A stretch of 64,000 bases of DNA from Alphaproteobacteria bacterium (GCA_965248825.1 CBDFKL010000006.1:1293095-1357094), one strand, 5' to 3'. Numbered from the stretch's first letter, positions 2,211 through 26,170 are shown. Made by a program: numbers and translations. Notes: generated from the sequence alone by a model not told the origin.

Positions 2211-2253
2211 CGTCTTGTCTGCTGGAACAGCCCTTTGGTCCGCTGGCGGCCCG

Positions 2254-3159
2254 TCACTCGGGAGCCAGCCCGCAACTGACGCCGCCGTCGATCGTGAGCG
2301 CGATGCCGGTGATCCACTGCGCCTCGTCCGAGGCGAGGTAGACGAAGCCGCCGGCGATGGAGGCCGGGTCTCCGATACCGAGGGGATGGAGCTTCTCAAG
2401 CCGCGCCTTGAATCCTTCGGGATCGTCGAGCTGGGACAGGTGGTGGTCGACCATCGGCGTCTGGACCCAGCCGGGGCAGATGCAGTTGACCCGGATCTGG
2501 TCCTTGGCACCGTCGAGCGCCAGGCACTTCGTCAGCATGACGACAGAGCCCTTGGAGGTTCCGTAGGCTACCTGACCGGGGGTTCCGATGAGCCCGGCGA
2601 TCGAGGCGGTATTCAGGATCACGCCGCCGCCGCGCGCGCGCATGTGGCCCCAGATCGCCTTGGCGGCCCGATAGATGCTGGTGACGTTGACGTCGATCTG
2701 ACGGTCCCAGTCCGCGCTCTCGACCTCCTCCACGGTGCCGATCACGGCCTGGCCGGCATTGTTGATCAGGACATCGACATGGCCGAGCGCCTCGATCGCG
2801 CCCTGGACGAGCCCGGTCACGTCGTCGTCGCGCATGACATCGGCCTCGATGGCGATCGCGGTGCCGCCCGCGTCCTCGATCGCACGCACGGTGCCGACAT
2901 TGTCGTCGGCGCTGAGGCCCGCGCACACGACCGCGGCGCCTTCCTGCGCGAAGCGCAGCGCCGTCGCCCGGCCGATGCCGGAGCCCGCGCCGGTGATGAT
3001 CGCGGTCTTGCCGTCGAGCCGGCGCTGCGCGTGCTCGCCCGGCCCGGTCCCGCTTCCGATTTCGGTCACCCTACCCTCATATCCCAAACCGCCGCCAAGG
3101 CTATCAGCGTCCCGCCGAACAAGCACGTCGCAAGCGCGAAGCGCGGGGGCGTGGAACAT
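2254..3159 (-). CDS. Short-chain dehydrogenase/reductase (SDR) family oxidoreductase
   Basis: Rossmann motif GKTAIITGAGSGIGRA, NNAG motif and catalytic YGTSKGSV (YxxxK) are present. It lies immediately upstream of the dehydratase on the same strand (probable operon). The start is uncertain (first Met at aa 46 of the ORF; a GTG nearer the TGxxxG motif is possible). Confidence 0.75.
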   Translation of the reverse strand: MFHAPALRACDVLVRRDADSLGGGLGYEGRVTEIGSGTGPGEHAQRRLDGKTAIITGAGSGIGRATALRFAQEGAAVVCAGLSADDNVGTVRAIEDAGGTAIAIEADVMRDDDVTGLVQGAIEALGHVDVLINNAGQAVIGTVEEVESADWDRQIDVNVTSIYRAAKAIWGHMRARGGGVILNTASIAGLIGTPGQVAYGTSKGSVVMLTKCLALDGAKDQIRVNCICPGWVQTPMVDHHLSQLDDPEGFKARLEKLHPLGIGDPASIAGGFVYLASDEAQWITGIALTIDGGVSCGLAPE

Positions 3160-3364
3160 CGTTGAGACCGGGAGAGAGGAGGCTCGGACCCTGCGGGGCT
3201 GACGGCGGCACGCGGCTTCGTCGCGATCGCGGCGCGTCAGCCGGCTTCCAGCGGGTTCAATATGGTCAGCCCTTCGAAACCGGCCGCTTGGCAAAGACGA
3301 CGATCTGCGCAGACAAATGTCAAAGGCGCCGGCACGCTGTGACGAACCGTCAGACAGCCGGCGA
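3155..3364. repeat. Direct repeat copy A (about 210 bp, about 90% identical to 4061..4272); contains a remnant vapC 3' end
   Basis: Near-identical string to copy B (aacatcgttgag…gcgatcgcgg…ttccagcgggttca…gacaaatgtcaaaggcgccggcacgctgtgacgaaccgtcagacagccggcga). On the minus strand it encodes …VCADRRLCQAAGFEGLTILNPLEAG*, i.e. the VapC C-terminus with one amino-acid change. Confidence 0.8.
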
Positions 3365-3380
3365 TCTCCTCGGTATCCGG

Positions 3381-3728
3381 TCAGTCTTCGAGGAGCCGGG
3401 TCAGCATATGACGGACGTGATCCTGACCACCAAAGAACACCGCCAGAACACGGATAGTCCGACGCGCTTCATCGATATCGAACCAGTAGATCGCCCGGTC
3501 GATCGTCAGATGCCGCAGACCGGGCAGAATGTCGTCATGGCTTTCGCCTCGGTGGGGCGCGGTCAGGATGCGGTTCGCGGCCGCGCGGATGTCCAAAACC
3601 CGCGCCTCGGCATTATCAAACGCGGCTTCCACGCTCTCGCCAAAGCCGAGGTAGTTGTCGAAGAGATGGTCGAAGATCAGTCCGAAATCGCGCTCGGCCT
3701 CCGCCGAGAACTCAAGACGGAAGTCCAT
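3381..3728 (-). CDS. parE: ParE/RelE-family type II toxin
   Basis: 115-aa protein (MDFRLEFSAEAERDFGLIFDHLFDN…RVLAVFFGGQDH…), typical ParE size and fold signature. It overlaps the upstream antitoxin gene by 17 nt. Confidence 0.8.
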   Translation of the reverse strand: MDFRLEFSAEAERDFGLIFDHLFDNYLGFGESVEAAFDNAEARVLDIRAAANRILTAPHRGESHDDILPGLRHLTIDRAIYWFDIDEARRTIRVLAVFFGGQDHVRHMLTRLLED

Positions 3729-3987
3729 GCGAGCGGCGCTTCGCGGCGATCACGTCGGCCAACCGGCTATCCATCCGCTCCCCGCTAATGAACTTGCGCT
3801 CCCGGCGGCGGGCCAGAACCTCGCGCAGCGCCGTGAGTTCCAGCTCCTCGGCTTCTATCCGCTGGCGCAGCAGGTCCATGCCCTGTTGCAATACGGCGCT
3901 GACGCTGGAATAGCGCCCAGCCTCCACCAATGTCCTGGCGAAGGCGTGTTGCTTGTCCGTGAGCGAGACCGAAGATTTGATCGTCAT
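3712..3987 (-). CDS. parD: ParD-family (RHH/CopG-like) type II antitoxin
   Basis: The start was set at MTIKSSVSLTDKQHAFARTLVEAGRYSSVSAVLQQGMDLLRQR…, the characteristic ParD antitoxin N-terminus. It lies upstream of and overlapping parE. Confidence 0.8.
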   Translation of the reverse strand: MTIKSSVSLTDKQHAFARTLVEAGRYSSVSAVLQQGMDLLRQRIEAEELELTALREVLARRRERKFISGERMDSRLADVIAAKRRSHGLPS

Positions 3988-4008
3988 AGGTGCTCTCTTT
4001 GACAGCGA

Positions 4009-4027
4009 GGTAGCACCTGGTAGCACC
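4009..4027. promoter_or_regulatory. Tandem direct repeat GGTAGCACC-T-GGTAGCACC just upstream of parD (candidate ParD operator)
   Basis: A 9-nt unit is repeated twice with a 1-nt spacer, 20-40 nt upstream of the parD start on the minus strand. ParD antitoxins autoregulate through repeat operators. Confidence 0.3.
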
Positions 4028-4060
4028 GACGTCAATATCGACCACCTCGCGAGAGCGTAT

Positions 4061-4272
4061 AACATCGTTGAGTTCGAGAGAGAGGGGGCTTGGACCCTGC
4101 GAGGAGCCGACGGCGGCCCGTGGCTTCGTCGCGATCGCGGCTCGTCAGCCTGCTTCCAGCGGGTTCAGTATGGCCAGCCCTTCGAAACCGGCCGCCTGGC
4201 AAAGACGACGATCGGCGCAGACAAATGTCAAAGGCGCCGGCACGCTGTGACGAACCGTCAGACAGCCGGCGA
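4061..4272. repeat. Direct repeat copy B (about 210 bp); overlaps the authentic 3' end of vapC
   Basis: See copy A. Copy B spans vapC codons for …CADRRLCQAAGFEGLAILNPLEAG* plus about 85 nt downstream. Confidence 0.8.
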
Positions 4273-4597
4273 GCTGGAGGGCGTCATAAGTCCTGAGCGG
4301 GTGGGAGTCGAGCGACCGAGCGGCCTCCTCGATCACCGCCGAGCTTGACGGCTGCACGAGATACAATGATGACCTGTCTTCGTCGATCTGCTTGAGGATT
4401 CGATTGGCGTCCGGCCCCGAGATGTCACCCTCTCGCTCACGCCTGCGGATTGCCGAACGAGCCTCGAGGAGGGAGACGTCCAGGATGATGATGTGGCCGT
4501 CGCCGAGAGCCTCCGTCAGATCGAGCAGCGCCGCGGTTCCCTCTTCCTCGATGTAGAGCTTGATCAGCGCGCTCGTGTCCAAATAGACGCTCGCCAT
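4145..4597 (-). CDS. vapC: PIN-domain VapC-family type II toxin (ribonuclease)
   Basis: 150-aa protein with N-terminal MASVYLDTSALIKLYIEEEG (PIN acidic-residue signature DTSALI) and a size typical of VapC. Confidence 0.8.
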   Translation of the reverse strand: MASVYLDTSALIKLYIEEEGTAALLDLTEALGDGHIIILDVSLLEARSAIRRREREGDISGPDANRILKQIDEDRSSLYLVQPSSSAVIEEAARSLDSHPLRTYDALQLAGCLTVRHSVPAPLTFVCADRRLCQAAGFEGLAILNPLEAG

Positions 4598-4606
4598 AGA
4601 CCTGGA

Positions 4607-5257
4607 TCAGTGCCTGTCGTTGAGGACGGTGTCGGCGATCGAGCCGCCCCGGATGCGTACCGGCTTGAAGCCCGTGCCGCGTCGGCGGGAGTCGGGCTGA
4701 AATCGCGGATGTTTCCGATTGACCCGTATTGCGGTGATCGGGTGCAGCGGCTGATTCGGGTTGGGGACTTGGCTGGTCAGGATCAGGCGCTGTTCCGTCG
4801 CATGGCGCAGCAGGGATCCGCTCGCCCTCGGATCGCGAGCCCAACCGTGGCCGCTTTCGGGAAGAAAGTGATCGCGGAACCATGTCAGGCCGACGAACGG
4901 TCGCACGCCTTCGGCAGTCTTGAGCTCGGCGATGAGTTGGTCCATGGCGGTCTCGACATCGACCGTGTCGGCCGGTCCCTCGAAACGGTTGCCGCCGGAC
5001 TCGCGCTCGGCGGCTTCGTGCTGAGGTGTTTCAAGCGGAACGAATTTGATCATCACGACGCACTTGTCGGGGTCGAAATAGCCGGCAGACGCGTCCTCGC
5101 GGATTTTCCTCTGGGAATCCGCGTTGTGGATGCTGACCTGGGGGTTGCGGTCATCGACGGGCAAATGCCGGAGCCCCTGCAATTCGCTCGGAAGGGTTAG
5201 AGCGGGCAGGCTGGCGAGACTTTCCTCGATGTCCCGCTGCAAGTCGGCAATTTTCAT
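4607..5257 (-). CDS. Uncharacterised 216-aa protein in the antitoxin position upstream of vapC (no recognisable antitoxin fold)
   Basis: It ends 9 nt before the vapC start on the same strand. The coding looks real (GC3-biased, no low-complexity run), but it is three times longer than normal VapB and has no RHH/AbrB/Phd-like N-terminus that I can recognise. Confidence 0.5.
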   Translation of the reverse strand: MKIADLQRDIEESLASLPALTLPSELQGLRHLPVDDRNPQVSIHNADSQRKIREDASAGYFDPDKCVVMIKFVPLETPQHEAAERESGGNRFEGPADTVDVETAMDQLIAELKTAEGVRPFVGLTWFRDHFLPESGHGWARDPRASGSLLRHATEQRLILTSQVPNPNQPLHPITAIRVNRKHPRFQPDSRRRGTGFKPVRIRGGSIADTVLNDRH

Positions 5258-5271
5258 TTTTTCTCCTATTT

Positions 5272-5290
5272 TTCTAGCAAATTACTAGAA
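5272..5290. promoter_or_regulatory. Perfect inverted repeat TTCTAG-N7-CTAGAA in an AT-rich divergent promoter region
   Basis: ttctagcaaattactagaa lies in the about 200-bp AT-rich spacer between the 216-aa/vapC operon (minus) and the SDR gene (plus), directly upstream of the 216-aa gene start. Confidence 0.35.
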
Positions 5291-5456
5291 ATTTATAAGA
5301 TCGCGCAATTTACCAGGTGCCCAGGCCCCTATGTCAAGCTCTTTGCGGCATGCGGTGGTCGGTCCCATGCGCCTCCGCCTGCGCCGATCCGTCGCGATGG
5401 TTGACTCGGTGCCGCGCGAGACGATAGGCCCGGCGGGCGGCATGGGGAGCGGCACC

Positions 5457-6269
5457 ATGAGGTTCCAGGGAAAATACGCGATCGTGACCGGCGGCGGCCG
5501 CGGCATCGGCCGCGAGATCGGGCGCCGGTTCGCGGCCGAGGGGGCGCATGTCGTGCTCGCCGATATCGACGGGAGCCGCGCCGACGAAGCCGCAGCCGAG
5601 ATTGGCGCCGCCGGCGGCCACGCCGCGCCCTGCGCGGCCGATCTCGGCACGCCGGAAGGGGCCGCGCACCTGTTCGAGACGGCACACGCCCGTTTCGACG
5701 GGCGCCTCGACGTCCTGATCAACAATGCCGGGATCGCCCATCACGGCGCCTTCCTGGACCTGACGCTCGAGGATTGGGAGCGGGTCTTGCGCAACAATCT
5801 GACCAGCGCGTTCCTCTGTGCGCAGAGGGCGGCCCGGATCATGGCCGAGCGGGGCGGCGGGCGCATCGTCAATATCGGCTCGATTTCGGGGCAACGCGGC
5901 AGTTATGGCCGCACCGCCTACGGCGTCACCAAGGCGGGCATCCATCAGATGACGCGAATCATGGCGGTCGAGCTCGGCCCGCGGAACATTACCGTCAACG
6001 CGATCGCGCCCGGTCCGATCGATACCGGCATCACCAGCTTCGGGCCGGATCAGGAACGCCGTTACCTGGAACGCATTCCGCTCGAGCGCTTCGGCCAGGC
6101 CCGCGATGTTGCCGGCGCGGCGCTGTTCCTGGCCAGCGACGAGGCGGCCTATGTGACGGGCAGCGTGGTAAATGTCGATGGCGGCTTCGATAGCGCGGGG
6201 CTCATTTTCAGCTACACTGAGCTGACCACGGTCAAGAGCGATATCCGCGACCCAACGAAGAGCGATTGA
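5457..6269 (+). CDS. SDR family oxidoreductase (FabG-like 3-oxoacyl reductase type)
   Basis: Contains GKYAIVTGGGRGIGREIG, NNAG and YGVTKAG (YxxxK). The start was moved to MRFQGKYAIVTGG (aa 43 of the ORF). Confidence 0.8.
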   Translation: MRFQGKYAIVTGGGRGIGREIGRRFAAEGAHVVLADIDGSRADEAAAEIGAAGGHAAPCAADLGTPEGAAHLFETAHARFDGRLDVLINNAGIAHHGAFLDLTLEDWERVLRNNLTSAFLCAQRAARIMAERGGGRIVNIGSISGQRGSYGRTAYGVTKAGIHQMTRIMAVELGPRNITVNAIAPGPIDTGITSFGPDQERRYLERIPLERFGQARDVAGAALFLASDEAAYVTGSVVNVDGGFDSAGLIFSYTELTTVKSDIRDPTKSD

Positions 6270-6273
6270 ACCG

Positions 6274-7026
6274 ATGCGTGTTGATAAAAGCGTCGCCCTC
6301 GTCACCGGCGCGGCCGGCGGGATCGGCGGCGCCCTGGTGGCCGCGCTGGCGGAACGGGGCGCCCGGCGTATCCTTGCCGTCGACCTGCCGGAGCCGCTCG
6401 CTTCGGCCCAATTTCCGCAAGCCGCCGGCGTCGAGCCGCTTGCGCTCGATGTGACCGACGAGGCGGCCATGCAGCGCGCCGCCTCGCGTCACCCCGACGT
6501 CACCCTGGTGATCAACAATGCCGCGATCGTCTTTTTCGAGGGCATCATCGACGCATCGCGTATGACCAATGCGCGTGCGCAGTTCGAGGTTAATTTCTGG
6601 GGTTATCTCCACGTCGCGCGCGCCTTCGCGCCGGTGCTCGCGCAGAATGGCGGCGGCGCCCTGGTCAACGTCCTCTCCGAGGTGGCGCGGGCGAACGCGC
6701 CTTTCGTCGGCGCCTATTCCGCGAGCAAGGCGGCGGCCTGGTCCGCGACCCAGTGCATGCGGGCCGAGCTTCGCGCGCAAGGCACCCATGTGCTCGCCGT
6801 GTTTCCGAGCTCGACCGATACGCCCATGCTCGCCGGCATCGGCGGCGACAAGCAAGCGCCCGAGGCGGTGGCGCGCGGCGTCCTCGATGCGCTGGAGGAA
6901 GGGGCGGAGGACGTCTCGGTCGGCGCCCACTCGGTCCAGATCGAGGCGTTGATGCAACGCGACCCGAAGGAAGTTGAGCGGGAGTTCGCGGCCTTCCTTC
7001 CCGGAGCTCCGTCAATACCCGATTAG
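6274..7026 (+). CDS. SDR family oxidoreductase
   Basis: Contains KSVALVTGAAGGIGGAL, NNAA, YSASKAA. It starts 5 nt after the previous SDR (tandem SDR pair). Confidence 0.8.
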   Translation: MRVDKSVALVTGAAGGIGGALVAALAERGARRILAVDLPEPLASAQFPQAAGVEPLALDVTDEAAMQRAASRHPDVTLVINNAAIVFFEGIIDASRMTNARAQFEVNFWGYLHVARAFAPVLAQNGGGALVNVLSEVARANAPFVGAYSASKAAAWSATQCMRAELRAQGTHVLAVFPSSTDTPMLAGIGGDKQAPEAVARGVLDALEEGAEDVSVGAHSVQIEALMQRDPKEVEREFAAFLPGAPSIPD

Positions 7027-7039
7027 AGTCCGCGCTCCC

Positions 7040-9001
7040 CTACAGCGTGAGGGCGGTCCGGTGCCCGTCGTGAATCGCCGAGGCCGGGTCGCGGGGCAGC
7101 AGGCAGTCGCCGATGAGCCGGGCCGAAATTCCTGCATCTGCCAGCTCGCCTGCGAGTGCATCGCGGGCGAGGCGCGGGGTTGCGTAGGTCAAGAGCGCGA
7201 CCTCCTCGATGATCGTTTCCGCGCCGGTGATCACGTGGCGGCAGATGACGCGGTCCGCCTCTCGGGCGACCGGTTCCGTCAGCCGGTGCACCTCGATCCC
7301 GAGATGGGCTAAGCGCCGCTCGACACCCATGCGCGACATCAGGTTGACGAAGCGGGCGATCTCGGGCGCGGGCGTCAGCAGCGTCACGCGCTCGAAGCGC
7401 TGTGCGAGCAAGTCGACGGCGGCGTAAAAGGCGGGCGTCTGGTCCATGTCGAGCAGAACGGCCCTGCCGCGCGCCGGCGCCGCTGCGGCGCCCGCCCCGA
7501 CCAGGCTCTCGACGGCACGCCGCAGATCGATCGCCTCCGATTCGCCGGCAAGCGCCGGCGGCCGGCGCATAAGGGATCCGGCCGCGAGGATGACCGCGTC
7601 CGGATCGCGGTCTCGCACCGTCGCCACTGTCGCCGCTTCGCCGAACCGGAATTCGGCGCCTGCCTCGACCGCCTGCTCGTACTGGAACGTCGCGGTCTTC
7701 GCCACCTCGGCACGGCCCGGCAGGCATGATTCGAGACGCGAAGCGCCGCCCACTTCCTGGCTCGCCGAGAACACGGTCACCGCGTGGCCGCGGGCCGCCG
7801 CGATCCACGCCGCCTCCAGGCCCGCGAGCCCGGCGCCGATCACCACCACGCGCTTGCGCTGCGCGGCCGCCGGCGGCCGCCAGCCGGCCTCGCCCTCGCT
7901 GGCCAGCACGGGATTCTGGAAACAGCGGATCGGCTTGCCGGCATGAATCTCGCCCCAGCAATAGTTGCAATAGGTGCACAGGCGAACGTCCTTGGAGCGG
8001 CCCTCCCGGGTCTTGCGCGGCCAGGCGGCGTCGGAGATCAACATGCGGCTGAAGCCGATCATGTCGCAGGCCTTCTCGGCGAGCGCGGCGTCCGCCGCCT
8101 CTGCCGATTCGATCCGGCCGAGCCCGATCACCGGGAGCCCGCCTGCGGCGGCGCGGAGCCGCTTGTGGAGCGCCAGGAACGGGCGCGGCGGATAGTGCAT
8201 GTCCGGCAGGTGCGAATCGAAATGCGGGCCGAACGCGCCCTGGCTGAAAGAGAGATAGTCGAGCACCCGCTCGGCCGCGGCGGCCCGGGCGATGCGCGCC
8301 GCCTCGTCCGGCTCGATCCCGCCCGGGAGCCGCTCATCGGCCGGGAGCTTGATGCCGACGATGAAGTCGGGGCCGCAGGCATTGCGAACGGCGGCCAGCA
8401 CCTCGCGCATGAAACGGATGCGGCCCTCGAAACTGCCGCCATAGCCGTCGGTCCGGTCGTTGCAGGCGGGAGAGAGAAATTGGGCAATGAGGTAGCCATG
8501 GGCACCATGCAGCTCGACGCCGCTGAAGCCCGCACGCTTCAAGCGTTCGGCGCTCTCAGCATAGCCTGCGACGATCCCCGGGATCTCTGCTTCGGCGAGG
8601 GGCCGCGCGGCGTTCCAATAGAGCGCCTCCGGCTGCGCGGAAGCGCCGCGCGGCACCGAATCGAGGCCCCAGAGCTGCTGGCGCCCGATATGGCCGAGCT
8701 GGCCGATCAGCCGGCAGCCGGCGCTCTCGACGGCCTCCGCCCATCGCGTGAAGCCCGTGAGGTTGGCCTCGTCATGAGCACTCACCAGGATCGGCGCGCC
8801 GCTGCTGGTCGGATGGACATTGAGGAGCTCGGTCACGATCATCGCGGCGCCGCCCTCGGCGCGCTCTCGGTGGTAAGCAACGAGACGATCCGTCACTTTT
8901 CGTGCCTGCCCGAGGCCGGTCACGGTTGCGGTGTGGACGATCCGATTGCGCAGCTCGTGGCGGCCGATGGTGATCGGGCTGAACAAGCTGTCCAGGGCCA
9001 T
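7040..9001 (-). CDS. OYE-type NADH:flavin oxidoreductase fused to an FAD/NAD(P)-binding domain (2,4-dienoyl-CoA reductase/FadH-like)
   Basis: The N-terminal TIM-barrel OYE region (…LRNRIVHTATVTGL…, …HGAHGYLIAQFLSP…NDRTDGYGGS…) is followed by a GxGxxG dinucleotide-binding domain (VVVIGAGLAGLEAA). Confidence 0.85.
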   Translation of the reverse strand: MALDSLFSPITIGRHELRNRIVHTATVTGLGQARKVTDRLVAYHRERAEGGAAMIVTELLNVHPTSSGAPILVSAHDEANLTGFTRWAEAVESAGCRLIGQLGHIGRQQLWGLDSVPRGASAQPEALYWNAARPLAEAEIPGIVAGYAESAERLKRAGFSGVELHGAHGYLIAQFLSPACNDRTDGYGGSFEGRIRFMREVLAAVRNACGPDFIVGIKLPADERLPGGIEPDEAARIARAAAAERVLDYLSFSQGAFGPHFDSHLPDMHYPPRPFLALHKRLRAAAGGLPVIGLGRIESAEAADAALAEKACDMIGFSRMLISDAAWPRKTREGRSKDVRLCTYCNYCWGEIHAGKPIRCFQNPVLASEGEAGWRPPAAAQRKRVVVIGAGLAGLEAAWIAAARGHAVTVFSASQEVGGASRLESCLPGRAEVAKTATFQYEQAVEAGAEFRFGEAATVATVRDRDPDAVILAAGSLMRRPPALAGESEAIDLRRAVESLVGAGAAAAPARGRAVLLDMDQTPAFYAAVDLLAQRFERVTLLTPAPEIARFVNLMSRMGVERRLAHLGIEVHRLTEPVAREADRVICRHVITGAETIIEEVALLTYATPRLARDALAGELADAGISARLIGDCLLPRDPASAIHDGHRTALTL

Positions 9002-9071
9002 GAGCGGGTCCGTTGCGGAAGTGCCGGGCGGCGCAGTGTAAGCTAGTCACGGCTCGAACGCAGGGAGAAGC

Positions 9072-10694
9072 ATGGCCGACGAAGTTGACTTCATCGTCGT
9101 GGGCGGCGGCACGGCGGGTTGCGTGTTGGCGAACCGGCTCTCGGCCGACCCGGCGAACCGGCTCGCGCTGCTCGAGGCCGACGGCGAGGCGCGCCATCCC
9201 GCGATTCATATCCCGCTGATGGCGGGCTTCGTCTATTTCCTGCGCTCGATCAACTGGAACTACCGGAGCGAGCCCGAGCCTTATCTCGACGGCCGCCGCA
9301 TCCCCTGGCCGCGCGGCAAGCTGCTCGGCGGCACCTCTTCGATCAACGGCATGATGTATATGCGCGGCAATCGCCGCGATTACGACGGCTGGCGCCAGCT
9401 CGGCCTCGAGAGTTGGGGCTACGCGGCGGTGCTCCCCTACTTCAAGCGCGCCGAGGGCCACGAGACGCGCCGCGACGCCTATCACGGCGCCGACGGCCCG
9501 CTCCGCGTCAGCCGCGCCCGATCGGATAACCCGCTCTATGAGGTTTTCCTGCAAGCCTGCGAGGCGCTCGGCATGCCGCGCAATGGTGATTTCAACGGCG
9601 CGACCCAGGAGGGCGTCGGCCGGCAGGATTTCTGCTACCACCGGGGTCGGCGGGTGAACACCGGGCACGCCTTCCTGCTGCCCGTGCGCCGCCGACCCAA
9701 TCTGCGCGTGCTGCTCCGCGCCCACGCCGAGCGCCTGCTGTTCGAGGGCCGGCGTGCCGCCGGTGTCGCCTATCGGCGCGGCGGGCGGCTCAGCGAGCTG
9801 CGGGCGCGGCGCGAGGTGATTCTGTGCGCCGGCGCGGTCAATTCGCCGGCGCTGCTGCAGCTCTCAGGGATCGGCGCGCCGGACCATCTCGGCTCGCTCG
9901 GCATCCCCGTCGTCGCCGAAAGCCCTGATGTGGGGCGCAACCTGCAAGACCATGCAGGGGTCTACGTCCAATATTCCTGCACCCGGCCGGTCACGCTTTA
10001 CGGTCTGATGCGTCCCGACCGCGCGGCGCTCGCCTACCTTCGCGCCTATCTCTTCGGCACCGGCCCCGGCACCTCGATCGCGCTCGAAGCCGGCGGCTTC
10101 GCCCGCACCCGCGATGTTCTCGACGACCCAGATGTTCAGCTCACCTTCCTGCCCGGCCTCACTCTCGACGTGACGCGCAAGAAACAGGGCCGCCACGGCT
10201 TCCTCACCCATTGCTATCAGCTCCGCCCCGAGAGCCGCGGCGAGATCCGTATCGCCACCGCCGATGCCAGCGCCGCGCCGAAGATTCACTCCAACACGCT
10301 CGCCGCGGAAGCCGACCGCCTTGTGGTGCGCGACGGGGTCCGGCTCGCGCGCCAAATCATGAGGCAAGCGCCATTCGATCCCTATCGCGGCCACGAGATC
10401 GCACCGGGCGAGGCGATTCGGTCGGACGACGAGATCGATGCCTGGGTGCGGGCCAATATGACGACCGTCTGGCATCCGGTCGGCACCTGCCGCATGGGCG
10501 CGGACGAGGGCGCCGTGGTCGACGCCGCCCTCAGGGTGCGCGGTATCGAGGGGCTCCGCGTGGCGGATGCCTCCGTCATGCCGCTGATCACCAGCGGCAA
10601 CACCGCCGCGCCCACCGTCATGATCGCCGAGAAGGCCGCCGACATGATCCTCGGCAAGCCGCCGCTCGCCGCTGAGGACCCGGCAACAGCGTGA
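9072..10694 (+). CDS. GMC family oxidoreductase (choline/alcohol dehydrogenase-like flavoprotein)
   Basis: Contains N-terminal DFIVVGGGTAGCVLANRLS, the GMC signature GGTSSINGMMYMRG, and a C-terminal active-site region (…HPVGTCRMG…). Confidence 0.85.
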   Translation: MADEVDFIVVGGGTAGCVLANRLSADPANRLALLEADGEARHPAIHIPLMAGFVYFLRSINWNYRSEPEPYLDGRRIPWPRGKLLGGTSSINGMMYMRGNRRDYDGWRQLGLESWGYAAVLPYFKRAEGHETRRDAYHGADGPLRVSRARSDNPLYEVFLQACEALGMPRNGDFNGATQEGVGRQDFCYHRGRRVNTGHAFLLPVRRRPNLRVLLRAHAERLLFEGRRAAGVAYRRGGRLSELRARREVILCAGAVNSPALLQLSGIGAPDHLGSLGIPVVAESPDVGRNLQDHAGVYVQYSCTRPVTLYGLMRPDRAALAYLRAYLFGTGPGTSIALEAGGFARTRDVLDDPDVQLTFLPGLTLDVTRKKQGRHGFLTHCYQLRPESRGEIRIATADASAAPKIHSNTLAAEADRLVVRDGVRLARQIMRQAPFDPYRGHEIAPGEAIRSDDEIDAWVRANMTTVWHPVGTCRMGADEGAVVDAALRVRGIEGLRVADASVMPLITSGNTAAPTVMIAEKAADMILGKPPLAAEDPATA

Positions 10695-10709
10695 TCCGCC
10701 GGCGCGGCC

Positions 10710-11372
10710 TCAGTTGCAAAGATGGGCGAGCGGCCGAATCACGACACCGCGCATCATCGGCAGGGTGCGGGGCTCGAATTCCTGAACGATCGCGTGTCCC
10801 TGTTCCGCGACCAGGTCGAGGAAGCGGTCGAGGTGGCGCATGGCATGGACGATAGCGCCGTCCGGATAGCCGACGATGTCGTGCAGGATCAGAATGGTCC
10901 ACGGCCGCTCGGCGAGCGCTGCGAGGCCGCGATCGATCCAGCCGTCCGCGTCCTCCCAGTCGCGCGTCACCGCGTCGAACATGACGCAAGTGTAGCCGCC
11001 GTCCACGAGCCGATCGACATGGGCGCGCTTGAAAACGCGGTCGTCGATGATCCCGGCGTTGCAGAACGGCCGGAAATAGCGGTCGGGATGGGCCAGCGGC
11101 CCGATCAGCTCCTGGGTCCGTGTCACTTCGTCGTCGAACGCCGCCGGGTCGTCGCTGTCGCCGAGCGAGAAAGCGTGGCTATAGGAGTGGTTGCCGATCC
11201 AATGGCCCTCGCCATGGGCGCGCTCGACCGCGGCCCGCCCCTCGGCGGTCGCAAGTTTCTTGCCGATCACGAAGAAGGTGGTTTTCACGCCATGGGCCGC
11301 CAGCGTGTCGAGTACGTGATGGGTGACCGCGGGCTCGGGGCCGTTGTCGAAGGTAAGGGTCATTTTTGCCAT
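10710..11372 (-). CDS. Polysaccharide deacetylase (NodB-homology) family protein
   Basis: Contains TFDNGP (NodB motif 1 TFDDG-like), HSYSH (His-His metal site) and further NodB motifs. Confidence 0.75.
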   Translation of the reverse strand: MAKMTLTFDNGPEPAVTHHVLDTLAAHGVKTTFFVIGKKLATAEGRAAVERAHGEGHWIGNHSYSHAFSLGDSDDPAAFDDEVTRTQELIGPLAHPDRYFRPFCNAGIIDDRVFKRAHVDRLVDGGYTCVMFDAVTRDWEDADGWIDRGLAALAERPWTILILHDIVGYPDGAIVHAMRHLDRFLDLVAEQGHAIVQEFEPRTLPMMRGVVIRPLAHLCN

Positions 11373-11396
11373 GGCGTCGCTGCTCCGGGCGCAGGC

Positions 11397-18131: not shown

Positions 18132-18185
18132 TCGCGGCCTGACGCCGAGCGCCACGACACTCGACGAAACGCGAGGTCACCGCCG

Positions 18186-19322: not shown

Positions 19323-21649
19323 TGACAATCGAAAAGGCCGCCGTCATCGGGGCGGGCCTGATGGGCGGCGGCATCGCCGCCCACATTGCCAATGCCGGCC
19401 ACGACGTCGTGTTGCTCGACATCGTGCCCGAGGGTGTCAGGAACCGGAATGCACTGGCCGAGGGTGCGGTCGAGAAGATGCTCAAGACCGAGCCCGCGCC
19501 ATTCATGGATAAGGCGGACGCGAAGCGGATCAAGACCGGCAATTTGGAGGACCATCTCGGCCTCTTGGAGGACGCGGACTGGATCGTCGAGGCGGTGATC
19601 GAGAAGGCCGACATCAAGCAGGCGGTCTATCGCCGGATCGATTCGGTGCGCAAGGCGGGCTCGATCGTCTCGTCCAACACCTCGACGATCCCGAGCCATG
19701 TGCTGTGTCGCGGCATGCCGGAGGCCTTCGTCCGTGATTTCCTGATCACGCATTTCTTCAATCCGCCGCGCTACATGCGGCTCTTGGAAGTGGTGTCGGG
19801 CCCAGCTACCCGGCCGGATGCGGCCGCGGCCGTGTGCGATTTCGCCGACCGCAAGCTCGGCAAGGGCGTCGTCGCGTGCAAGGACACGCCGGGTTTCATC
19901 GCAAACCGCATCGGGACCTATTGGATCATCGCCGCGGTCAAGGAAGCCCTCGACGGTGCGGTCACCATCGAGGAGGCGGATGCCGTGCTGTCCCGCCCGA
20001 TCGGCGTGCCGAAGACCGGCGTCTTCGGGCTGATCGATCTGGTCGGCCTCGACTTGATGCCGCTGGTCGGGCGCAGTCTTTATGAAGCGCTGCCCGAGGG
20101 CGACGCCTTCCGCGCGATCTACAACGAGCCCGCGATCATCGCCTCGATGATCGCGGACGGCTATGTCGGCCGCAAAGGCAAGGGCGGCTTCTATCGGTTG
20201 AAACCGGGATCCGAAAAGAGAGAGAAGGAGGCGCTCGACCTCTCATCGGGCGACTATCGGCTGGCCGAGCGCCCGAAACTGGAGAGCATCTCGCAAGCCG
20301 AAGGCTCGCTCCGGCGGCTCTTCGAGTTTCCGGACGAGACCGGGGCCTATGCATGGCGCGTGATGTCCGGGACGCTGGCCTACGCGGCCGCGTTGGTGCC
20401 CGAGATCGCCGACGAGGTCGACGCGGTCGATCGCGCCATCCGGCTCGGCTACAACTGGAAAGCGGGCCCTTTCGAGCTGATCGACAAGCTCGGCGCGGGC
20501 TGGTTCGCCGAGAAGCTCTCCGGCGAGGGCCGTCCGCTACCGCCGCTGCTCGAAAAGGCCGCCGAGCGCGACGGTTTCTACCGGCTCGCGGACGGCCGCT
20601 ACGAGCAGCTCACTGGCGGGGGCGCCTACGCCTCGATCGAGCGGCCGGCCGGCGTGCTGCTGCTCTCCGACGTCAAGCGCGGGCAGGAGCCGCTCGCACG
20701 CAACGGCTCGGCGAGCCTCTGGGACCTCGGCGACGGGGTCGCTTGCCTCGAGTTCCACACCAAGATGAACGCGCTCGACGCCGAGATCATGGCGCTGATC
20801 GGCCGGTCGATCGAGATCGTCGGCACGGACATGAAGGCGCTCGTGATCTACAACGAGGGCAGCAACTTCTCCGTCGGGATGAATCTCGGCCTCGCGCTCT
20901 TCGTCGTCAATATCGGCGCTTGGCAGATGGTCGAGGACACGGTGAAGCAGGGCCAGGAGGCCTTCAAGGCGCTCAAGTTCGCGCCCTTTCCGGTGGTCGG
21001 CGCGCCGTCCGGCATGGCGCTCGGCGGCGGCTGCGAGGTCTTGCTGCACTGCGACGCCGTCCAAGCGCACGCCGAGAGCTATATCGGCCTGGTCGAGGCC
21101 GGCGTCGGGATCGTGCCCGGTTGGGGCGGCTGCAAGGAGTTGATGCTGCGCGGTCTGAGCGACGGTAAGCGGGGTTTCGGCGGCGCGATGCCGGCGATCT
21201 CCAAGGCGTTCGAGACGATCGGCCTCGCCAAGGTCTCACGCTCGGCGAAACAGGCGCGGCGCCTCGGTTTCCTGCGAGAGGGCGATACCATCACCGCCAA
21301 CCGCGACCGTCTGCTGGCCGACGCCAAGGCGAAGGCGCTGGCGCTTGTCGAGAATTACACGGCGCCCGAGCCCCGGACCGTCAAGCTCCCCGGCAAGACC
21401 GCCCGCGTCGCGCTCAAGATGGCCGTGAGGGGGCTCGCGAAGACGCGCAAGGCCACGCCGCACGATCTGGTCGTGGTCGAGCATCTCGGCACTATTCTGA
21501 CCGGCGGCGACACCGATGCGACCAGGGAGGTTTCAGAGGATCGGCTATCCGCGCTTGAGCGCGATGCGCTGCTCGCCTTGATCCGCACCCCGGAAACCAT
21601 CGCCCGCATGGAGCACATGCTGGAGACCGGCAAGCCGCTCCGGAATTAG
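19322..21649 (+). CDS. Bifunctional 3-hydroxyacyl-CoA dehydrogenase (N-terminal) / enoyl-CoA hydratase (C-terminal) beta-oxidation protein
   Basis: The start MTIEKAAVIGAGLMGGGIA (NAD Rossmann of the 3HCDH domain) overlaps the thiolase stop by 1 nt. The C-terminal half has a crotonase fold (…FSVGMNLG…, …GMALGGGCEV…). Confidence 0.85.
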   Translation: MTIEKAAVIGAGLMGGGIAAHIANAGHDVVLLDIVPEGVRNRNALAEGAVEKMLKTEPAPFMDKADAKRIKTGNLEDHLGLLEDADWIVEAVIEKADIKQAVYRRIDSVRKAGSIVSSNTSTIPSHVLCRGMPEAFVRDFLITHFFNPPRYMRLLEVVSGPATRPDAAAAVCDFADRKLGKGVVACKDTPGFIANRIGTYWIIAAVKEALDGAVTIEEADAVLSRPIGVPKTGVFGLIDLVGLDLMPLVGRSLYEALPEGDAFRAIYNEPAIIASMIADGYVGRKGKGGFYRLKPGSEKREKEALDLSSGDYRLAERPKLESISQAEGSLRRLFEFPDETGAYAWRVMSGTLAYAAALVPEIADEVDAVDRAIRLGYNWKAGPFELIDKLGAGWFAEKLSGEGRPLPPLLEKAAERDGFYRLADGRYEQLTGGGAYASIERPAGVLLLSDVKRGQEPLARNGSASLWDLGDGVACLEFHTKMNALDAEIMALIGRSIEIVGTDMKALVIYNEGSNFSVGMNLGLALFVVNIGAWQMVEDTVKQGQEAFKALKFAPFPVVGAPSGMALGGGCEVLLHCDAVQAHAESYIGLVEAGVGIVPGWGGCKELMLRGLSDGKRGFGGAMPAISKAFETIGLAKVSRSAKQARRLGFLREGDTITANRDRLLADAKAKALALVENYTAPEPRTVKLPGKTARVALKMAVRGLAKTRKATPHDLVVVEHLGTILTGGDTDATREVSEDRLSALERDALLALIRTPETIARMEHMLETGKPLRN

Positions 21650-21679
21650 TCCAACGACGGCGGGCGCGGGAGTGATCGC

Positions 21680-22516
21680 ATGAGCGGTGTGGCCTGGAAC
21701 ATCGGGGTGGTTCAGATGGACTGCGCCGCCGGCGAAACGGAGCGGAACCTCGCGACGATTGCGCAGTTCGCGCGGATGGCGGCTGCCCGCGAAGCCGATC
21801 TGGTCGTCTTCCCGGAATGCGCCACCACCGGCTACTTCCTCGGCAGCCGGCTCGAGGATCTTGCCGAGCCGCCGGACGGGCCGACCGCCCGGCGGCTCGG
21901 CGAGATCGCCCGAGAGAATGCGCTCACCATGGCTGTCGGCGCCTACACGCGAAAGGACGGCGGCATCTACGATTCGCAGTTCCTGTTCGGCCCCGACGGG
22001 CGCTGCCTCGCGGTCTACGACAAGGCTCACCTGTTCGCGAGCGAGCGCGAAAGCTGCCGCCCCGGCGATCGGCCATGCGTGGTCGAGACCGCGCTCGGCA
22101 AGATCGGCATGACGATCTGCTACGACTTCATCTTTCCCGATTACGTGCGCCATCTGGTCGATCTCGGTGCCGACCTGATCGTCAACAGCACCGACTGGAT
22201 CAGCGATGCCTATCAACGGGAGACCTGGGGTTGGACCGGGACGGTGACCCAGAGCCTCGCCGCGACCCGCGCCCTCGAAAATCTTACCTTCGTCGCGATG
22301 GCAAACCGGGTCGGCAGCGAGGACGCGGCCCCCGGCCTCTCCTTCACCAGTCTGGGCCATTCCTGCGTTGCCGGCCCTTCCGGCAAGATCCTCACCTCGA
22401 TTCCGGAGGGTGAGGGGCTCGCGATTGCGCGCATCGACCTCGCGCGGGAGGATCTCGATCGTTGGCGTGCCATCGCAACATACCGCGAGGATCGCCGCCC
22501 CGAGTTGATGACATGA
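21680..22516 (+). CDS. Carbon-nitrogen hydrolase (nitrilase/amidase superfamily)
   Basis: Contains the catalytic triad context …[11 protein letters not shown]… (Glu), …YDKAHLF… (Lys) and …GMTICYD… (Cys). Confidence 0.8.
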
Positions 22517-23574
22517 GTGTTGCGAGCGCCGCCGCGCTGCCCGCGCGCATCGCTGACGAGGCGGCGCTCGAGGATCTGATGACCACGCCGGGCGCGGCGC
22601 TCCGCGCCGCCCTCGCCCGGGTGGCGGGCGACATCGTCGTGCTCGGCGTCGGCGGCAAGATGGGGCCGACCCTGGCCGGCCTCGCCAAGCGTGCGGCTCC
22701 CGACAAGCGTGTCGTCGGCGTCGCCCGCTTCTCGGATCCCACCGTCCGCGAGAAGCTCGCCGCCTGGGATGTCGAGCCGATCGAATGCGATCTCCTGGAT
22801 CGGGACGCCGTGGCCGACCTGCCGAGGCTGCCCAACGTCGTCTTCATGGCAGGCCGCAAGTTCGGTGCGGTCGGCGACGACGACCTGACCTGGGCGATGA
22901 ACGCTCATGTGCCCGCGATCGTCGCCGAGACCTTTCGTGACTCCAGGATCGTCGCCTTCTCGACCGGCTGCGTGTACCCGTTCGTCGACATTCGCCATCA
23001 GGGCGCGACTGAAGAGACGCCGCCGACCCCGCCGCCCGGCGAATACGCCAATTCCTGCGTCGGGCGTGAGCGGTTGATCCAGTATTTCTCGCGCCGTTTC
23101 GACAATCCAGGTCGTCTGGTTCGGCTGAACTACGCGATCGATATGCGCTACGGCGTGCTTCATGACGTGGCCTGCAAGGTCCGCGACGGCACGCCAATCG
23201 ACCTCACCACCGGCCATGTCAACGTCATCTGGCAGGGAGACGCCAACGCCATGGCGCTGCGCTGCCTTGAGCACTGCACCGTGCCGGCCTCGCCCATCAA
23301 TGTGAGTGGTCCTGAAACCGTGAGCGTCCGCGCCCTGGCTCAAGCTTTCGGCCAGCGGCTGGGGAAGGAGCCCGCCTTCCTCGGCGAGGAAGCGCCGAGC
23401 GGATGGCTGGTCAATACGCGGCGCGCCTGCGCCCTCTTCGGCTATCCGAGCGTTCCGCTGGGGCTGATGATCGACTGGGTCGCGGACTGGGTGGCGCGCG
23501 ACATGCCGGGCCTCGCCAAGCCCACCCAGTACGAGGTGCGGGACGGTGTGTTCTCCGCGCCGGTGGCGCCATGA
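22513..23574 (+). CDS. NAD-dependent epimerase/dehydratase family protein
   Basis: The start MSVASAAAL overlaps the previous stop by 4 nt. Contains the Rossmann VLGVGGKMG motif and an extended-SDR fold. The ORF N-terminal extension was rejected. Confidence 0.7.
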
Positions 23575-24632
23575 ACCTCGTCTGGCGCGAGGTGCCGGCG
23601 CCGGTACGGGCGGCACTCGCCCGCGGCGTCGTGATTCCGGCGCATCCGTTGGCCCTCGATGCCGGGCGCCGGCTCGACGAGCGGCGCCAGCGCGCGCTCA
23701 CCCGCTACTACCTCGATGCGGGCGCCAGCGGCCTCGCGGTCGGCGTGCACACGACCCAGTTCGCCATCCGCGAGGCCGGCCTCTACGAGCCGGTGCTCAG
23801 GCTCGCCGCCGAGACCGCCGAGACTTGGACCGAACGGCCGCTGGTGCGGATCGCCGGCCTCGTCGGGCGGACAGAGCAGGCTCTCGCCGAGGCCGATATC
23901 GCCCTCGGCCTCGGCTATCACGCCGGGCTGGTGAGCCTCGCCGCCTTCGCAGGCGCGAGCGAGGACGAGCGAATCGCCCATTGCGCGCGGCTCGCCGAGC
24001 GGATTCCTCTGGTCGGCTTCTATCTACAGCCTGCGGTGGGCGGGGTCGTGCTCGGGCCCTCCTTCTGGCGCCGGTTCGCCGCTCTCGACAATGTGGCGGC
24101 GATCAAGATCGCGCCGTTCAACCGCTACCGCACCCTCGATGTCGTCCGCGGCATCGTCGAAGCCGGTGCGGAAGACCGCATCACCCTCTATACCGGGAAT
24201 GACGACCATATTCTCCTGGACCTGGTCACGCCCTATCGCCTGGTACGCGATGGCGTCGGCGTTACGGTGCGCATAAAGGGCGGGCTGCTGGGGCATTGGA
24301 GCGTCTGGGTCAAGCGCGCCGTGGAATTGCTCGACCATGTCCACGCGGCGGTCGAGGGGGGTGCTGTGGACTCCGGTTTTCTGGCGCTGGATGCCCAGAT
24401 CACCGATTGCAACGCCGCGCTCTTCGACGCAAGGAACGACTTTCGGGGCTGCATTGCCGGCTGTCACGAGGTGCTCCGCCGCCAGCGCCTCCTCCGGGGG
24501 ACTTGGTGCCTCGATCCGGAGGAAGGGCTGAGCCCCGGCCAAGCCGCCGAGATCGACCGCGTCTGCGCCGCCTACCCGGCGCTCACCGACGACGACTATG
24601 TCCGCGCCAATCTCGCGCGCTGGCTTGCCTGA
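23571..24632 (+). CDS. Dihydrodipicolinate synthase (DapA/NAL) family class I aldolase-like protein
   Basis: The start [12 protein letters not shown] overlaps the previous stop (ATGA). DapA-family (beta/alpha)8 signatures are present (…[13 protein letters not shown]…, …LYTGNDD…, K in …AAIKIAPF…). Confidence 0.7.
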
Positions 24633-24648
24633 GGCCGTCGCCCCCGCA
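24496..24648. repeat. Direct repeat copy 1 (about 150 bp): authentic 3' end of the dapA-family gene
   Basis: About 90% identical to 26019..26170. It encodes …[44 protein letters not shown]. Confidence 0.8.
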
Positions 24649-24878
24649 GAACTCCGCCACAAGCGGTCTGAACGGTTCCAAGGACAATTTCATGCTGCGT
24701 CGGACAGGCGCGCGGCTCACTGTGCTTCGCGCGGCACGGCGGTGCCGCGCTGACCGACCAGGAAATCGAGGTCGACGCCGCGGTCGGCCCGATCGATCCG
24801 CACCCCGGGAATCATTTCCGTCCGGTGCCCGCCATTGGCCCCGGCCAGGCGCGGATGACGGGATCCTCGCCGCTAACG

Positions 24879-25217
24879 CTAACTACCGAGAGAGGCGAGG
24901 GCCTCCGTCCGGGAGCCGTGGATCGGGATGATCTTGTCGAAACCGCTGATCTGAAAGACCTCCGTGACTGAATCGGAAAGCGAGCAAAGCGCAATTTCAA
25001 TGTCTCGTTTCCCGAGAGCCTTGGCGATCAGCAGGATGGCGCGGAGGCCTGCGCTGCTGATGTAGGAGAGGTTTTCGCAGTCGATGATCACGGCGCCTTC
25101 GCGTTCGCCGATTGCGGCGTGCATCGCTTTTTCGAAGTCACGCGCGTTGGTGCCGTCTATGCGGCCGTCCGCCTTGGCAATCAGCGTTCCGTTTTCGCTT
25201 TCGATGCTTATTTCCAT
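24879..25217 (-). CDS. STAS-domain protein (anti-sigma-factor antagonist SpoIIAA-like)
   Basis: The start MEISIESENGTLIAKADGRIDGTNARDFEKAM… resembles SpoIIAA/RsbV (alternating beta/alpha, conserved …ENLSYISSAGLRAIL… with the phosphorylatable Ser context). About 112 aa. Confidence 0.65.
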   Translation of the reverse strand: MEISIESENGTLIAKADGRIDGTNARDFEKAMHAAIGEREGAVIIDCENLSYISSAGLRAILLIAKALGKRDIEIALCSLSDSVTEVFQISGFDKIIPIHGSRTEALASLGS

Positions 25218-25275
25218 CGCTCCTGCTTTCCCGCGTCGTGAAATACCGTCCGAGTTCTCGAGTGAGAGATCAGTG

Positions 25276-25887
25276 TCAGTGCACCGGCGCCATTGCGAAG
25301 GCAAGAGAGGCTTTGATGTCCCGGACCGCCTTCGCGACCTCCCGGCCGATCAAGTCCATCTTGCGGATCTGTTCGATGCGTGGAGCCGTACCCTTCAACT
25401 CTCGATTGGAAAGCAGACTCCCGAAAATACCGCATACGTCCGCAAGGGAGATGATGACGATGTCGCGCGCATCCGGAATATCATCGCCGAACAGCACCCC
25501 CATGATCCGCAGCTTCACCTCGCGAATGGTCCGGTCGTCGACGATCGGATAGCGTCGCGTCTGGAACACCCACAGGAAACGGTCGTCCTCCCGGCGCAGA
25601 ATGCCGCGCTCGACGAGACGGGCGAGGGAGCGTTCGCGGATTTCACCGGCCCGCGGAATCGTTTGCTCGATCCAATAGCGGGCGCCGCGCGTCTCCGTCG
25701 ATTGCACGATATGAGCAAGCGTCGGGTCGAGCAGATCGTCCTCGACCGGTGCCGGATCGATCACGAAGAGCCGTTCCGGATCGGTATCGATCCGGAACTC
25801 CAGGGCCAAATCCATCAGAACCGCGCCCGCAAGAGCGTATTCGAGCGATAGCGCGGGAACGTCTGCGAACTTCCCGCCCTTAGTCAT
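25276..25887 (-). CDS. GOLPH3/VPS74 (GPP34)-like protein
   Basis: 203-aa protein containing LSLEYALAGAVLMDLALEFRI, which resembles the GPP34 signature (LxxALxGAxLxELALxGRI). It is immediately upstream of and co-directional with the STAS gene. The assignment is from memory of the family motif. Confidence 0.45.
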   Translation of the reverse strand: MTKGGKFADVPALSLEYALAGAVLMDLALEFRIDTDPERLFVIDPAPVEDDLLDPTLAHIVQSTETRGARYWIEQTIPRAGEIRERSLARLVERGILRREDDRFLWVFQTRRYPIVDDRTIREVKLRIMGVLFGDDIPDARDIVIISLADVCGIFGSLLSNRELKGTAPRIEQIRKMDLIGREVAKAVRDIKASLAFAMAPVH

Positions 25888-26018
25888 CGAGTAGAAGCAG
25901 CATGATCTCTTCGGAAAATCTCAGCACGGATACGTTTCCCGGCCCGAAGGAACGAAGATCATCGCATACGACCGGAGGCAGTTCCATCGCTTCCGGCTCC
26001 GACGCCGAGGACTCCTCC

Positions 26019-26170
26019 GGGGGAATTGGTGCCTCGACCCGGAGGAAGGGCTGAGCCCCGGCCACGCCGCCGAGATCGACCGCGTCTGCGCCGCCTACCT
26101 GGCACTCACCGACGACGACTATGTCCGCGCCGATCTCGCGCGCCGGCCCGCCTGAGGCCGCCGCCCCGCG
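26019..26170. repeat. Direct repeat copy 2 (about 150 bp): diverged, displaced duplicate of the dapA-family 3' end
   Basis: In the same frame it encodes [44 protein letters not shown] with a TGA at the equivalent position. It differs from copy 1 by both synonymous and nonsynonymous changes. Confidence 0.8.

Follow-up and report, generated by a model that had tools for sequence, protein, structure and literature searches.

The stretch analysed here, called the window below, is a 64-kb chromosomal segment (G+C 66%) of the ~4.06-Mb genome of an uncultured alphaproteobacterium. It carries two small gene cassettes, a parDE toxin–antitoxin pair beside a vapC gene (locus 1) and a pair of STAS and GPP34 genes beside a gene of the DHDPS family (locus 2), each enclosed by two imperfect direct copies of the 3′ end of the adjacent gene. 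With moderate confidence we consider both structures to be the scars of recombinase-independent gene gain between related lineages and not mobile elements themselves. At both loci one copy of the repeat consists of the genuine 3′ terminus of an undamaged gene and some sequence downstream of it, and the other is a start-less fragment beyond the cassette; the host genes are full length and have the C-termini typical of their families, while the displaced ends on the far side lack starts. The repeat at locus 1 (3142–3367 versus 4048–4275, 226/228 nt with one 2-nt indel) is 90% identical and that at locus 2 (24473–24644 versus 25996–26167, 172 nt, extending to 188 nt in the relatives L001 and L002) is 91% identical. 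An earlier note on this DNA had described the same geometry at both loci (gene, its 3′ end, cassette, second 3′ end) and repeats of about 90% identity, and the coordinates of the repeats and of the open reading frames (ORFs) confirm both statements.

The nearest species-level relatives of the organism are metagenome-assembled genomes labelled Alphaproteobacteria or Rhodospirillales. Occupied alleles were available from L083 for locus 1 and from L001 and L002 for locus 2, all of them separate contigs from another assembly. The empty-site reference for locus 1 was L084, and the differences at locus 2 were polarised with the outgroups L003 and L004 (85–86% protein identity). The structures are thus found in four independent contigs (the window, L001, L002 and L083), in which the copies cluster by position and not by contig, and the repeats are therefore genuine and predate the divergence of these lineages. 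An assembly artefact, which the earlier note had named as a possible refutation, or a chance similarity has nothing in its favour beyond the general risk that repeats pose to assembly; given the four contigs and repeats of 172–228 nt at 90–91% identity, we give it practically no credence.

The features of locus 1 are the following.

4607–5257, minus strand: ORF of 216 aa, putative antitoxin gene directly upstream of the PIN gene
4145–4597, minus strand: complete gene of a PIN-domain (VapC-type) toxin, host gene at locus 1 (PF01850, E = 1.4e-8)
4048–4275, minus strand: repeat copy B, the final 131 nt of vapC and ~97 nt of downstream spacer
After vapC, toward parDE: B-type spacer, containing …CTCAACGATGTTATACGC…
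3368–4047, minus strand: cassette 1, a bare parD and parE-like module including its promoter region
3712–3987, minus strand: parD (PF03693)
3381–3728, minus strand: gene of the parE-like toxin (no Pfam match; family named RelE/ParE by some sources)
3142–3367, minus strand: repeat copy A, a start-less relic of the vapC 3′ end (3237–3367) and spacer, running into the upstream region of the next gene
2254–3069, minus strand: short-chain dehydrogenase (SDR) gene (Pfam adh_short), the downstream neighbour in occupied and empty alleles, syntenic in L083 and L084

All genes of this locus lie on the minus strand, in the order 216-aa gene, vapC, copy B, parD, parE-like gene, copy A and SDR gene. The period of the repeat is 906–908 nt, its ungapped core (3195–3367 and 4103–4275) is 94% identical, and copy A starts 14 nt past the parE stop codon. 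The codon differences between copies A and B comprise four synonymous changes and one non-synonymous change, and VapC homologues are 94% identical in L083 and 87% identical in L084. The payload between the repeats measures 687 bp and has a G+C content of ~0.62, against 0.66–0.72 in the flanks. The homology of this payload to a parDE pair lying in an unrelated context in L085 covers positions 4035 to 3384 of the window, i.e. the payload minus ~13–20 nt at each end, and cassette 1 therefore consists only of the parDE module with its promoter. No flanking gene-end repeats accompany the parDE module in L085 or in L172, two other genomes with unrelated contexts, so the architecture belongs to the locus and not to the module. 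The parE-like toxin family is common at 75–85% identity, and beyond the lineage the closest ParE reaches 85% identity. The family is also very widespread, with more than 800 clusters at E ≤ 1e-10, the best 120 of which share 74–99% identity.

The 216-aa protein encoded upstream of the PIN gene has no Pfam match. Together with the PIN toxin, this partner of 216–221 aa forms a conserved mobile two-gene module that occurs in at least three unrelated genomic contexts (L166–L169), and it may represent an undescribed type of antitoxin. The L083 version is called at 108 aa only, owing to a deletion of ~390 nt in the 5′ part. In L166 and L168 the homology of the PIN module stops ~20 nt past the PIN stop codon, from which it follows that the duplicated spacer of ~100 nt is specific to locus 1. 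As the duplication contains this spacer, the PIN module cannot have inserted twice independently.

An empty allele of locus 1 is found in L084. The occupied alleles of the window and L083 share the gene order SDR-SDR-X-PIN-[parDE]-SDR-ILVD, and L084 has SDR-SDR-X-PIN-SDR-ILVD with neither parDE nor a repeat; its sequence consists of the left flank of copy B, a single repeat and the right flank of copy A. Within coding sequence the single repeat of L084 sides with copy B wherever the two copies show fixed differences (columns 107 and 135 of the alignment, as well as 129 in the window), and in the spacer it agrees with copy A at all of the 6–7 polarised differences, where copy B deviates. This chimeric pattern (B-like coding part, A-like spacer; Fisher test p ~0.01–0.03) fits a reciprocal exchange near the stop codon, whether it took place during integration or during excision. 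A crossover fixed at the 5′ edge of the repeat would not be expected to produce it from these sequences. In insertion-duplication of the Campbell type, a single crossover of a circular molecule yields the order target segment, insert, target segment, and both repeats should then be chimeric about one crossover point. Such a pattern appears to be present at locus 1, though at few sites, and later mutation of the relic or drift of the B spacer would provide another explanation. The occupied/empty polymorphism that the earlier note had proposed to look for in relatives thus exists at locus 1, but was not found at locus 2.

The features of locus 2 are the following.

23571–24632, plus strand: complete gene of the DHDPS family, host gene at locus 2 (PF00701)
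24473–24665, plus strand: repeat copy c1, the final 157 nt of the DHDPS-family gene, its stop codon and ~30 nt downstream
24717–24790, minus strand: relic of the 3′ end of an IlvD/Edd-family dehydratase gene (the last ~24 codons and the stop), between c1 and the STAS gene
24879–25217, minus strand: STAS-domain gene of cassette 2 (PF01740, E = 4e-21), also in L001 and L002
25276–25887, minus strand: GPP34-family gene of cassette 2 (PF05719, E = 4e-40)
25996–26170, plus strand: repeat copy c2, a start-less, decaying remnant of the DHDPS-family 3′ end, after which comes the aminotransferase gene's upstream region
26276–27673, plus strand: class-III aminotransferase gene (PF00202), the right neighbour of the locus, 99% identical in L002

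Here the period of the repeat is 1523 nt and the payload between the copies is ~1.33 kb; the payload sizes of 0.9 and 1.4 kb given in the earlier note correspond to the repeat periods of the two loci and not to the cassettes. The G+C content of cassette 2 is 0.59–0.62, below that of its flanks. DHDPS-family homologues across Proteobacteria retain the same C-terminus as the host gene. As many as 8 of the 11 codon differences between c1 and c2 are non-synonymous and fall at residues that do not vary among family members (Q>H, P>L, N>D, WL>RP), and among the eight differences that could be polarised with L003 and L004 seven are derived in c2 and one in c1. Copy c2 is accordingly a decaying relic, since its changes are mostly derived, non-synonymous and located at conserved residues. 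The description of the replacement ends as diverged by synonymous changes is therefore correct for locus 1 but not for locus 2. The two copies resemble each other (91%) more closely than either resembles the nearest outgroup (~80–82%). In L001 (9465–10174) the GPP34 gene is split into two ORFs of 97 and 156 aa, on a contig of 3x coverage, which may reflect either a frameshift accompanying decay of the cassette or a sequencing error.

The IlvD/Edd relic lying between c1 and the STAS gene is ~80% identical in nucleotide sequence to annotated IlvD/Edd genes at their 3′ ends, its peptide ADRGVDLDFLVGQRGTAVPREAQ, followed by a stop, aligns with the C-terminus of a Skermanella protein, and it is conserved in L001 and L002. 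A contig scan with the DHDPS-family protein gave 80 other species, in none of which does the DHDPS-family gene have an IlvD/Edd neighbour. This fragment is a third displaced gene end, left from a previous setting of the STAS/GPP34 pair. No second IlvD/Edd end, which would mean a nested copy of the same geometry, was found upstream of GPP34.

Comparison with the occupied relatives reveals a mosaic of divergence at both loci. Over positions 483–7026 the window differs from L083 by ~0.5% from 483 to ~4054, a block which includes the downstream genes, copy A and the cassette, and by 2–4% beyond 4054, where copy B, vapC and the genes upstream lie, so that the break coincides with the left edge of the cassette. 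In the comparison with L001 and L002 (18000–31500) divergence is below 1% in the flanks and rises to 2–7% from inside the DHDPS-family gene (~23500–24250) through the cassette to 26250, ending at the relic. These jumps mark breakpoints of homologous recombination in the anchor gene and at the relic, and the mosaics indicate that cassette-bearing blocks are frequently exchanged between lineages via crossovers in conserved neighbouring genes. Farther to the right, positions 31661–38331 (plus strand) hold a type I restriction-modification island with HsdM, HsdS, an Abi_C-domain protein and a probable HsdR of 1046 aa; parts of its hsdM and hsdS are 62–79% identical to L002 in translated comparison and the flanking genes ~98–99% identical, as is typical of the turnover of specificity subunits.

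The explanation that we favour is gene gain by homology-facilitated illegitimate recombination. Donor DNA from a relative carrying the cassette beside the same conserved gene would pair with the recipient through that gene, which serves as a RecA-dependent anchor, and the non-homologous far end would be joined illegitimately inside the recipient's copy of the gene, 130–160 nt before its stop codon. A Campbell-type single crossover of a circularised fragment bearing a homology patch of ~200 bp could give the same product. In either case the functional 3′ end would come from the incoming copy, while that of the recipient would be displaced beyond the cassette and decay there. Later on, recombination between the ~200-bp repeats could excise the cassette or re-integrate it, ordinary homologous exchange in the flanking genes could spread the whole block through the population, and at locus 1 the parDE pair would penalise loss of its cassette. 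The duplications, the contents of the cassettes, the empty site of locus 1, the mosaic of divergence and the lack of element hallmarks are observed, and from them we infer the donor, the mode of joining and the direction, gain or loss, of the polymorphism at locus 1. The cassettes directly follow an intact gene and the breakpoints lie in the DHDPS-family gene and at the cassette edge, as is expected of an anchor; the lower G+C content of both cassettes relative to their flanks was likewise counted in favour of capture. Three unrelated relics of 3′ ends (vapC, DHDPS-family and IlvD/Edd) are what would be expected of repeated events combining an anchor with an illegitimate join, and not of one site-specific enzyme.

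Several observations weigh against this explanation. The donor allele that it calls for, with the gene followed by the cassette and no relic, was not found, so that the illegitimate joint and any microhomology at it are putative. An empty site of locus 2 was found neither in L001 and L002 nor in the outgroups, the 80 species or the metagenome collection, and no cassette, second gene end or adjacent orthologous aminotransferase gene occurs near the DHDPS-family gene in the 80 species. The outgroups L003 and L004 share the upstream genes, and their synteny with the window breaks exactly at the DHDPS stop codon, a different gene following within ~10 nt; none of the genes downstream of DHDPS in L003 and L004 is present in the window. 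The metagenome collection contains no close orthologue of the aminotransferase, the best match being 61% identical and not adjacent to a DHDPS gene. At locus 1 the chimera argument depends on 2–3 coding sites, all of which could be later G:C>A:T changes in the relic. Since the split of the window and L083 lineages the spacer of copy B has gained six substitutions and an 8-nt indel and that of copy A none, and the foreign look of the B spacer may thus be due to fast drift rather than to donor origin. The distribution of the structures belongs here as well. Gene-end repeats of this kind occur only at these two loci within the window, and a blastn self-scan of 170 other fetched loci (~1.6 Mb in total) revealed none beyond the orthologous copies, which places the structures above chance. 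Two events 20 kb apart, with none in 1.6 Mb elsewhere, hint at a lineage-specific factor beyond plain homology-facilitated illegitimate recombination.

Other repeats met in the same survey are of a different nature. In L038, G+C-rich palindromic intergenic repeats resembling REP/RIME elements (7105–7213 and 8907–9019) surround a 1.7-kb segment downstream of a DHDPS-family gene; this was considered as a further case and rejected, the repeat being a REP-like palindromic intergenic element and not a gene end. In the window, a 99-nt repeat of 78% identity (8435–8533 and 39793–39891) stems from paralogous genes of the Oxidored_FMN family (7040–9001 and 38356–40563) and is unrelated to the structures described here.

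The hallmarks of known mobile elements are absent from both loci. No recombinase is encoded in the cassettes, whose genes specify ParD, a RelE/ParE-family toxin, STAS and GPP34 proteins in agreement with the earlier note's statement that the payloads lack one, nor did the ORFs scanned in the window, 64 kb of a ~4.06-Mb genome, or the annotated genes of L002 and L083 include one. The only mobility-like gene in the window (47783–48958, minus strand), ~20 kb away, encodes a protein of 391 aa that matches HTH_23, HTH_28, HTH_29 and HTH_32 and resembles a transposase N-terminus; no catalytic domain was detected in it at E ≤ 1e-5. Transposons, insertion sequences (IS) and miniature inverted-repeat elements (MITEs) are recognised by terminal inverted repeats, target duplications of 2–15 bp and a transposase. 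The cassette ends have no terminal inverted repeats, the duplications measure 172–228 nt and the cassettes contain no transposase, and elements of this class are thereby rejected. Integron gene cassettes are likewise rejected, as neither a palindromic element at the cassette ends nor a nearby integrase was found in scans that did not include a dedicated attC model. Searches of plasmids with both cassettes returned only distant parDE homologues (64%) and nothing for STAS/GPP34 except the IlvD/Edd relic, scans of viral contigs gave no relative of GPP34 and one of ParE at 64%, and promoter and terminator scans of both loci found nothing.

The boundaries of the two loci share only 8–10-mers at chance level, with the exception of a motif of 10–13 nt, ATYGCCGGCTGTC, with the 10-nt core GCCGGCTGTC, near the 5′ edge of both repeats, at borderline significance (local p ~0.01–0.03 before correction). 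The core occurs four times in the window against 0.44 expected, at the following sites.

3353–3362: near a repeat 5′ edge
4261–4270: near a repeat 5′ edge
24456–24465: near a repeat 5′ edge
46945–46954: inside a nitronate monooxygenase gene, with no repeat structure

At locus 2 the motif lies beyond the repeat by 8 nt, c2 lacks it, and extending the repeat upstream to take it in gives an alignment no better than shuffled sequences (p ~0.8); ATYGCCGGCTGTC is for this reason not a consistent core. Near the 5′ edges it encodes Ala-Gly-Cys both in vapC and in the DHDPS-family gene. The shared boundary motif that the earlier note had suggested searching for was consequently not borne out.

The rival that comes closest in geometry is a pair of decayed site-specific integrative elements or trans-mobilised satellites, in which each cassette would be the remainder or the passenger of an element that entered the 3′ end of the gene and supplied a replacement for it, as e14 and phage 21 do in icd. 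On this view the repeats represent attL and attR, and the integrase has disappeared or is located elsewhere. The arrangement matches that of prophage e14 at icd/icdC (PMC13626634), and elements which by definition retain attL and attR without integration and transfer genes have been described (cis-mobilisable elements, CIMEs; PMC5704250). In the window the 5′ edge of the locus 1 repeat is perfectly identical over 58 nt, cassette 2 has suffered deletions, as the IlvD/Edd relic attests, so that an integrase could have been lost, and ATYGCCGGCTGTC is found near both 5′ edges. We nevertheless regard this rival as rather unlikely. L083 carries changes within the 58-nt segment, and at locus 2 the 5′ edge offers only 11 identical nt, followed by four mismatches in five positions. 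The position of the motif outside the locus 2 repeat and its loss from c2 mean that it cannot be a common core, and the coding part of the empty allele corresponds to copy B and not to copy A, the opposite of what a crossover at the 5′ edge predicts. Besides the lack of an integrase in the cassettes and in the window ORFs scanned, cassette 1 is parDE to within ~13–20 nt at each end, which would require an implausibly precise decay, and the three unrelated target genes would need three enzymes, which makes a single trans-acting integrase unlikely. The att sites and the family of trans-mobilised mini-elements envisaged in the earlier note thus receive no support from a consistent core, from terminal inverted repeats or from the choice of targets. 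The most novel of the conceivable readings needs no enzyme and supposes lineage-specific mini-elements in the form of a circle of ~1–1.5 kb composed of a small payload and a ~200-bp copy of the host gene 3′ end. Such a circle would be freed by recombination between the repeats, moved between relatives, e.g. in fragments of gene-transfer-agent size, and inserted through one crossover into the same gene in naive genomes, where a toxin–antitoxin payload would enforce its retention. Together with movement of the same cassettes by an unseen resident recombinase, we hold this reading to be distinctly improbable.

The target segments may also have been duplicated in situ, by a staggered break or by replication template switching (e.g. 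fill-in and end-joining), giving copies that were identical at first and drifted later, the one in the intact gene under constraint and the other in decay. This is more credible for locus 2, where the copies are closer to each other than to the outgroup and where nearly all differences are derived and non-synonymous in c2. At locus 1 the spacer of copy B is still changing fast, and a rough comparison of the rates in relic and spacer is not clearly at odds with drift from initially identical copies. To our knowledge, however, no bacterial insertion process makes target duplications of 170–230 bp. The coding differences at locus 1 are mostly synonymous and the spacer differences are all on one copy, which fits alleles that diverged while functional better than symmetric drift, the mosaic blocks of divergence stay without an explanation, and a conspecific donor would likewise yield nearly identical repeats at the start, so that identity between the copies is not diagnostic; duplication in situ seems to us decidedly unlikely. 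The last of the rivals supposes a second full copy of the gene or toxin–antitoxin module, most of which was removed by deletion. The 216-aa and PIN gene pair is a mobile module of several contexts and toxin–antitoxin genes often form arrays (as in L172), but the repeat of locus 1 includes the locus-specific spacer that lies outside the PIN module, neither a second DHDPS-family copy nor adjacency of DHDPS-family and aminotransferase genes is seen in any of the 80 other species, and more steps are needed than in the alternatives. We regard such remnants as very improbable.

How toxin–antitoxin modules and cassettes of one or two genes move from chromosome to chromosome without visible mobility genes is a practical question of microbial genomics. 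The two loci provide unusually clean snapshots of this process, with intact boundaries, a matching empty site, stacked relics and breakpoints at the edges. They suggest that homology to a conserved neighbouring gene may suffice for the gain and loss of a cassette. For annotation they imply that imperfect direct repeats of a gene end ~200 bp long need not signal an integrative element, and that short pseudogenes of gene ends can be used as markers of past acquisition. Should genomes of this lineage turn out to contain the architecture at many sites, an unusually active route of short-fragment exchange would be indicated.

The structures can be compared with several known systems. In the product of Campbell-type insertion both repeats are chimeric around the crossover, a pattern that the comparison of empty and occupied alleles at locus 1 may reflect; this route needs a circular intermediate with a gene-end patch of ~200 bp, and none was observed here. 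They resemble CIMEs in being small segments between direct repeats that take in the target gene's end and in having no integration or transfer genes. Whereas CIMEs possess functional attL and attR of a known family of integrative elements (ICE/IME), neither a cognate integrase nor a conserved core nor a full-length relative of the element was found here. In the case of e14 and phage 21, which integrate in icd and leave the icdC pseudogene (PMC13626634, citing Hill et al. 1989), the intact gene likewise ends in element-borne sequence, the displaced C-terminal fragment at the far end has few and mostly conservative differences, and recombination between the copies gives a chimeric gene. However, the prophage e14 measures 15 kb, encodes its own integrase and is excised site-specifically on SOS induction, and our cassettes are 0.7 and 1.3 kb long and have no recombinase.

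Displaced orphan 3′ ends, together with immunity genes, have been described for the Rhs, contact-dependent inhibition (CDI) and type VI secretion system (T6SS) effector loci (PMC5361080). There an incoming module recombines through the conserved 5′ region of a gene, so that the previous 3′ end is moved downstream and persists as a relic, and successive events stack relics in a manner comparable to the IlvD/Edd relic of locus 2. The incoming end in those loci encodes a different toxin domain, whereas the ends described here are 90–94% identical, belong to ordinary genes and accompany an unrelated payload. The closest parallel is homology-facilitated illegitimate recombination, a process known from Acinetobacter, Streptococcus pneumoniae, P. 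stutzeri and conjugation in E. coli (PMC3240628; references in PMC5361080), with which both loci share a small payload beside a conserved anchor gene, the lack of any element enzyme, one homologous junction and one putative abrupt join within the gene. Laboratory cases are mostly described as an insertion combined with a deletion in the recipient, while at our loci the putative join lies upstream of the end of the homology, with the consequence that the gene end is duplicated. Homology-dependent capture is thus the better fitting of the two mechanisms proposed in the earlier note, although it is a known process and not an undescribed one, and the two loci are an instance of an already known kind of event, a tidy natural example with an unexplained local enrichment.

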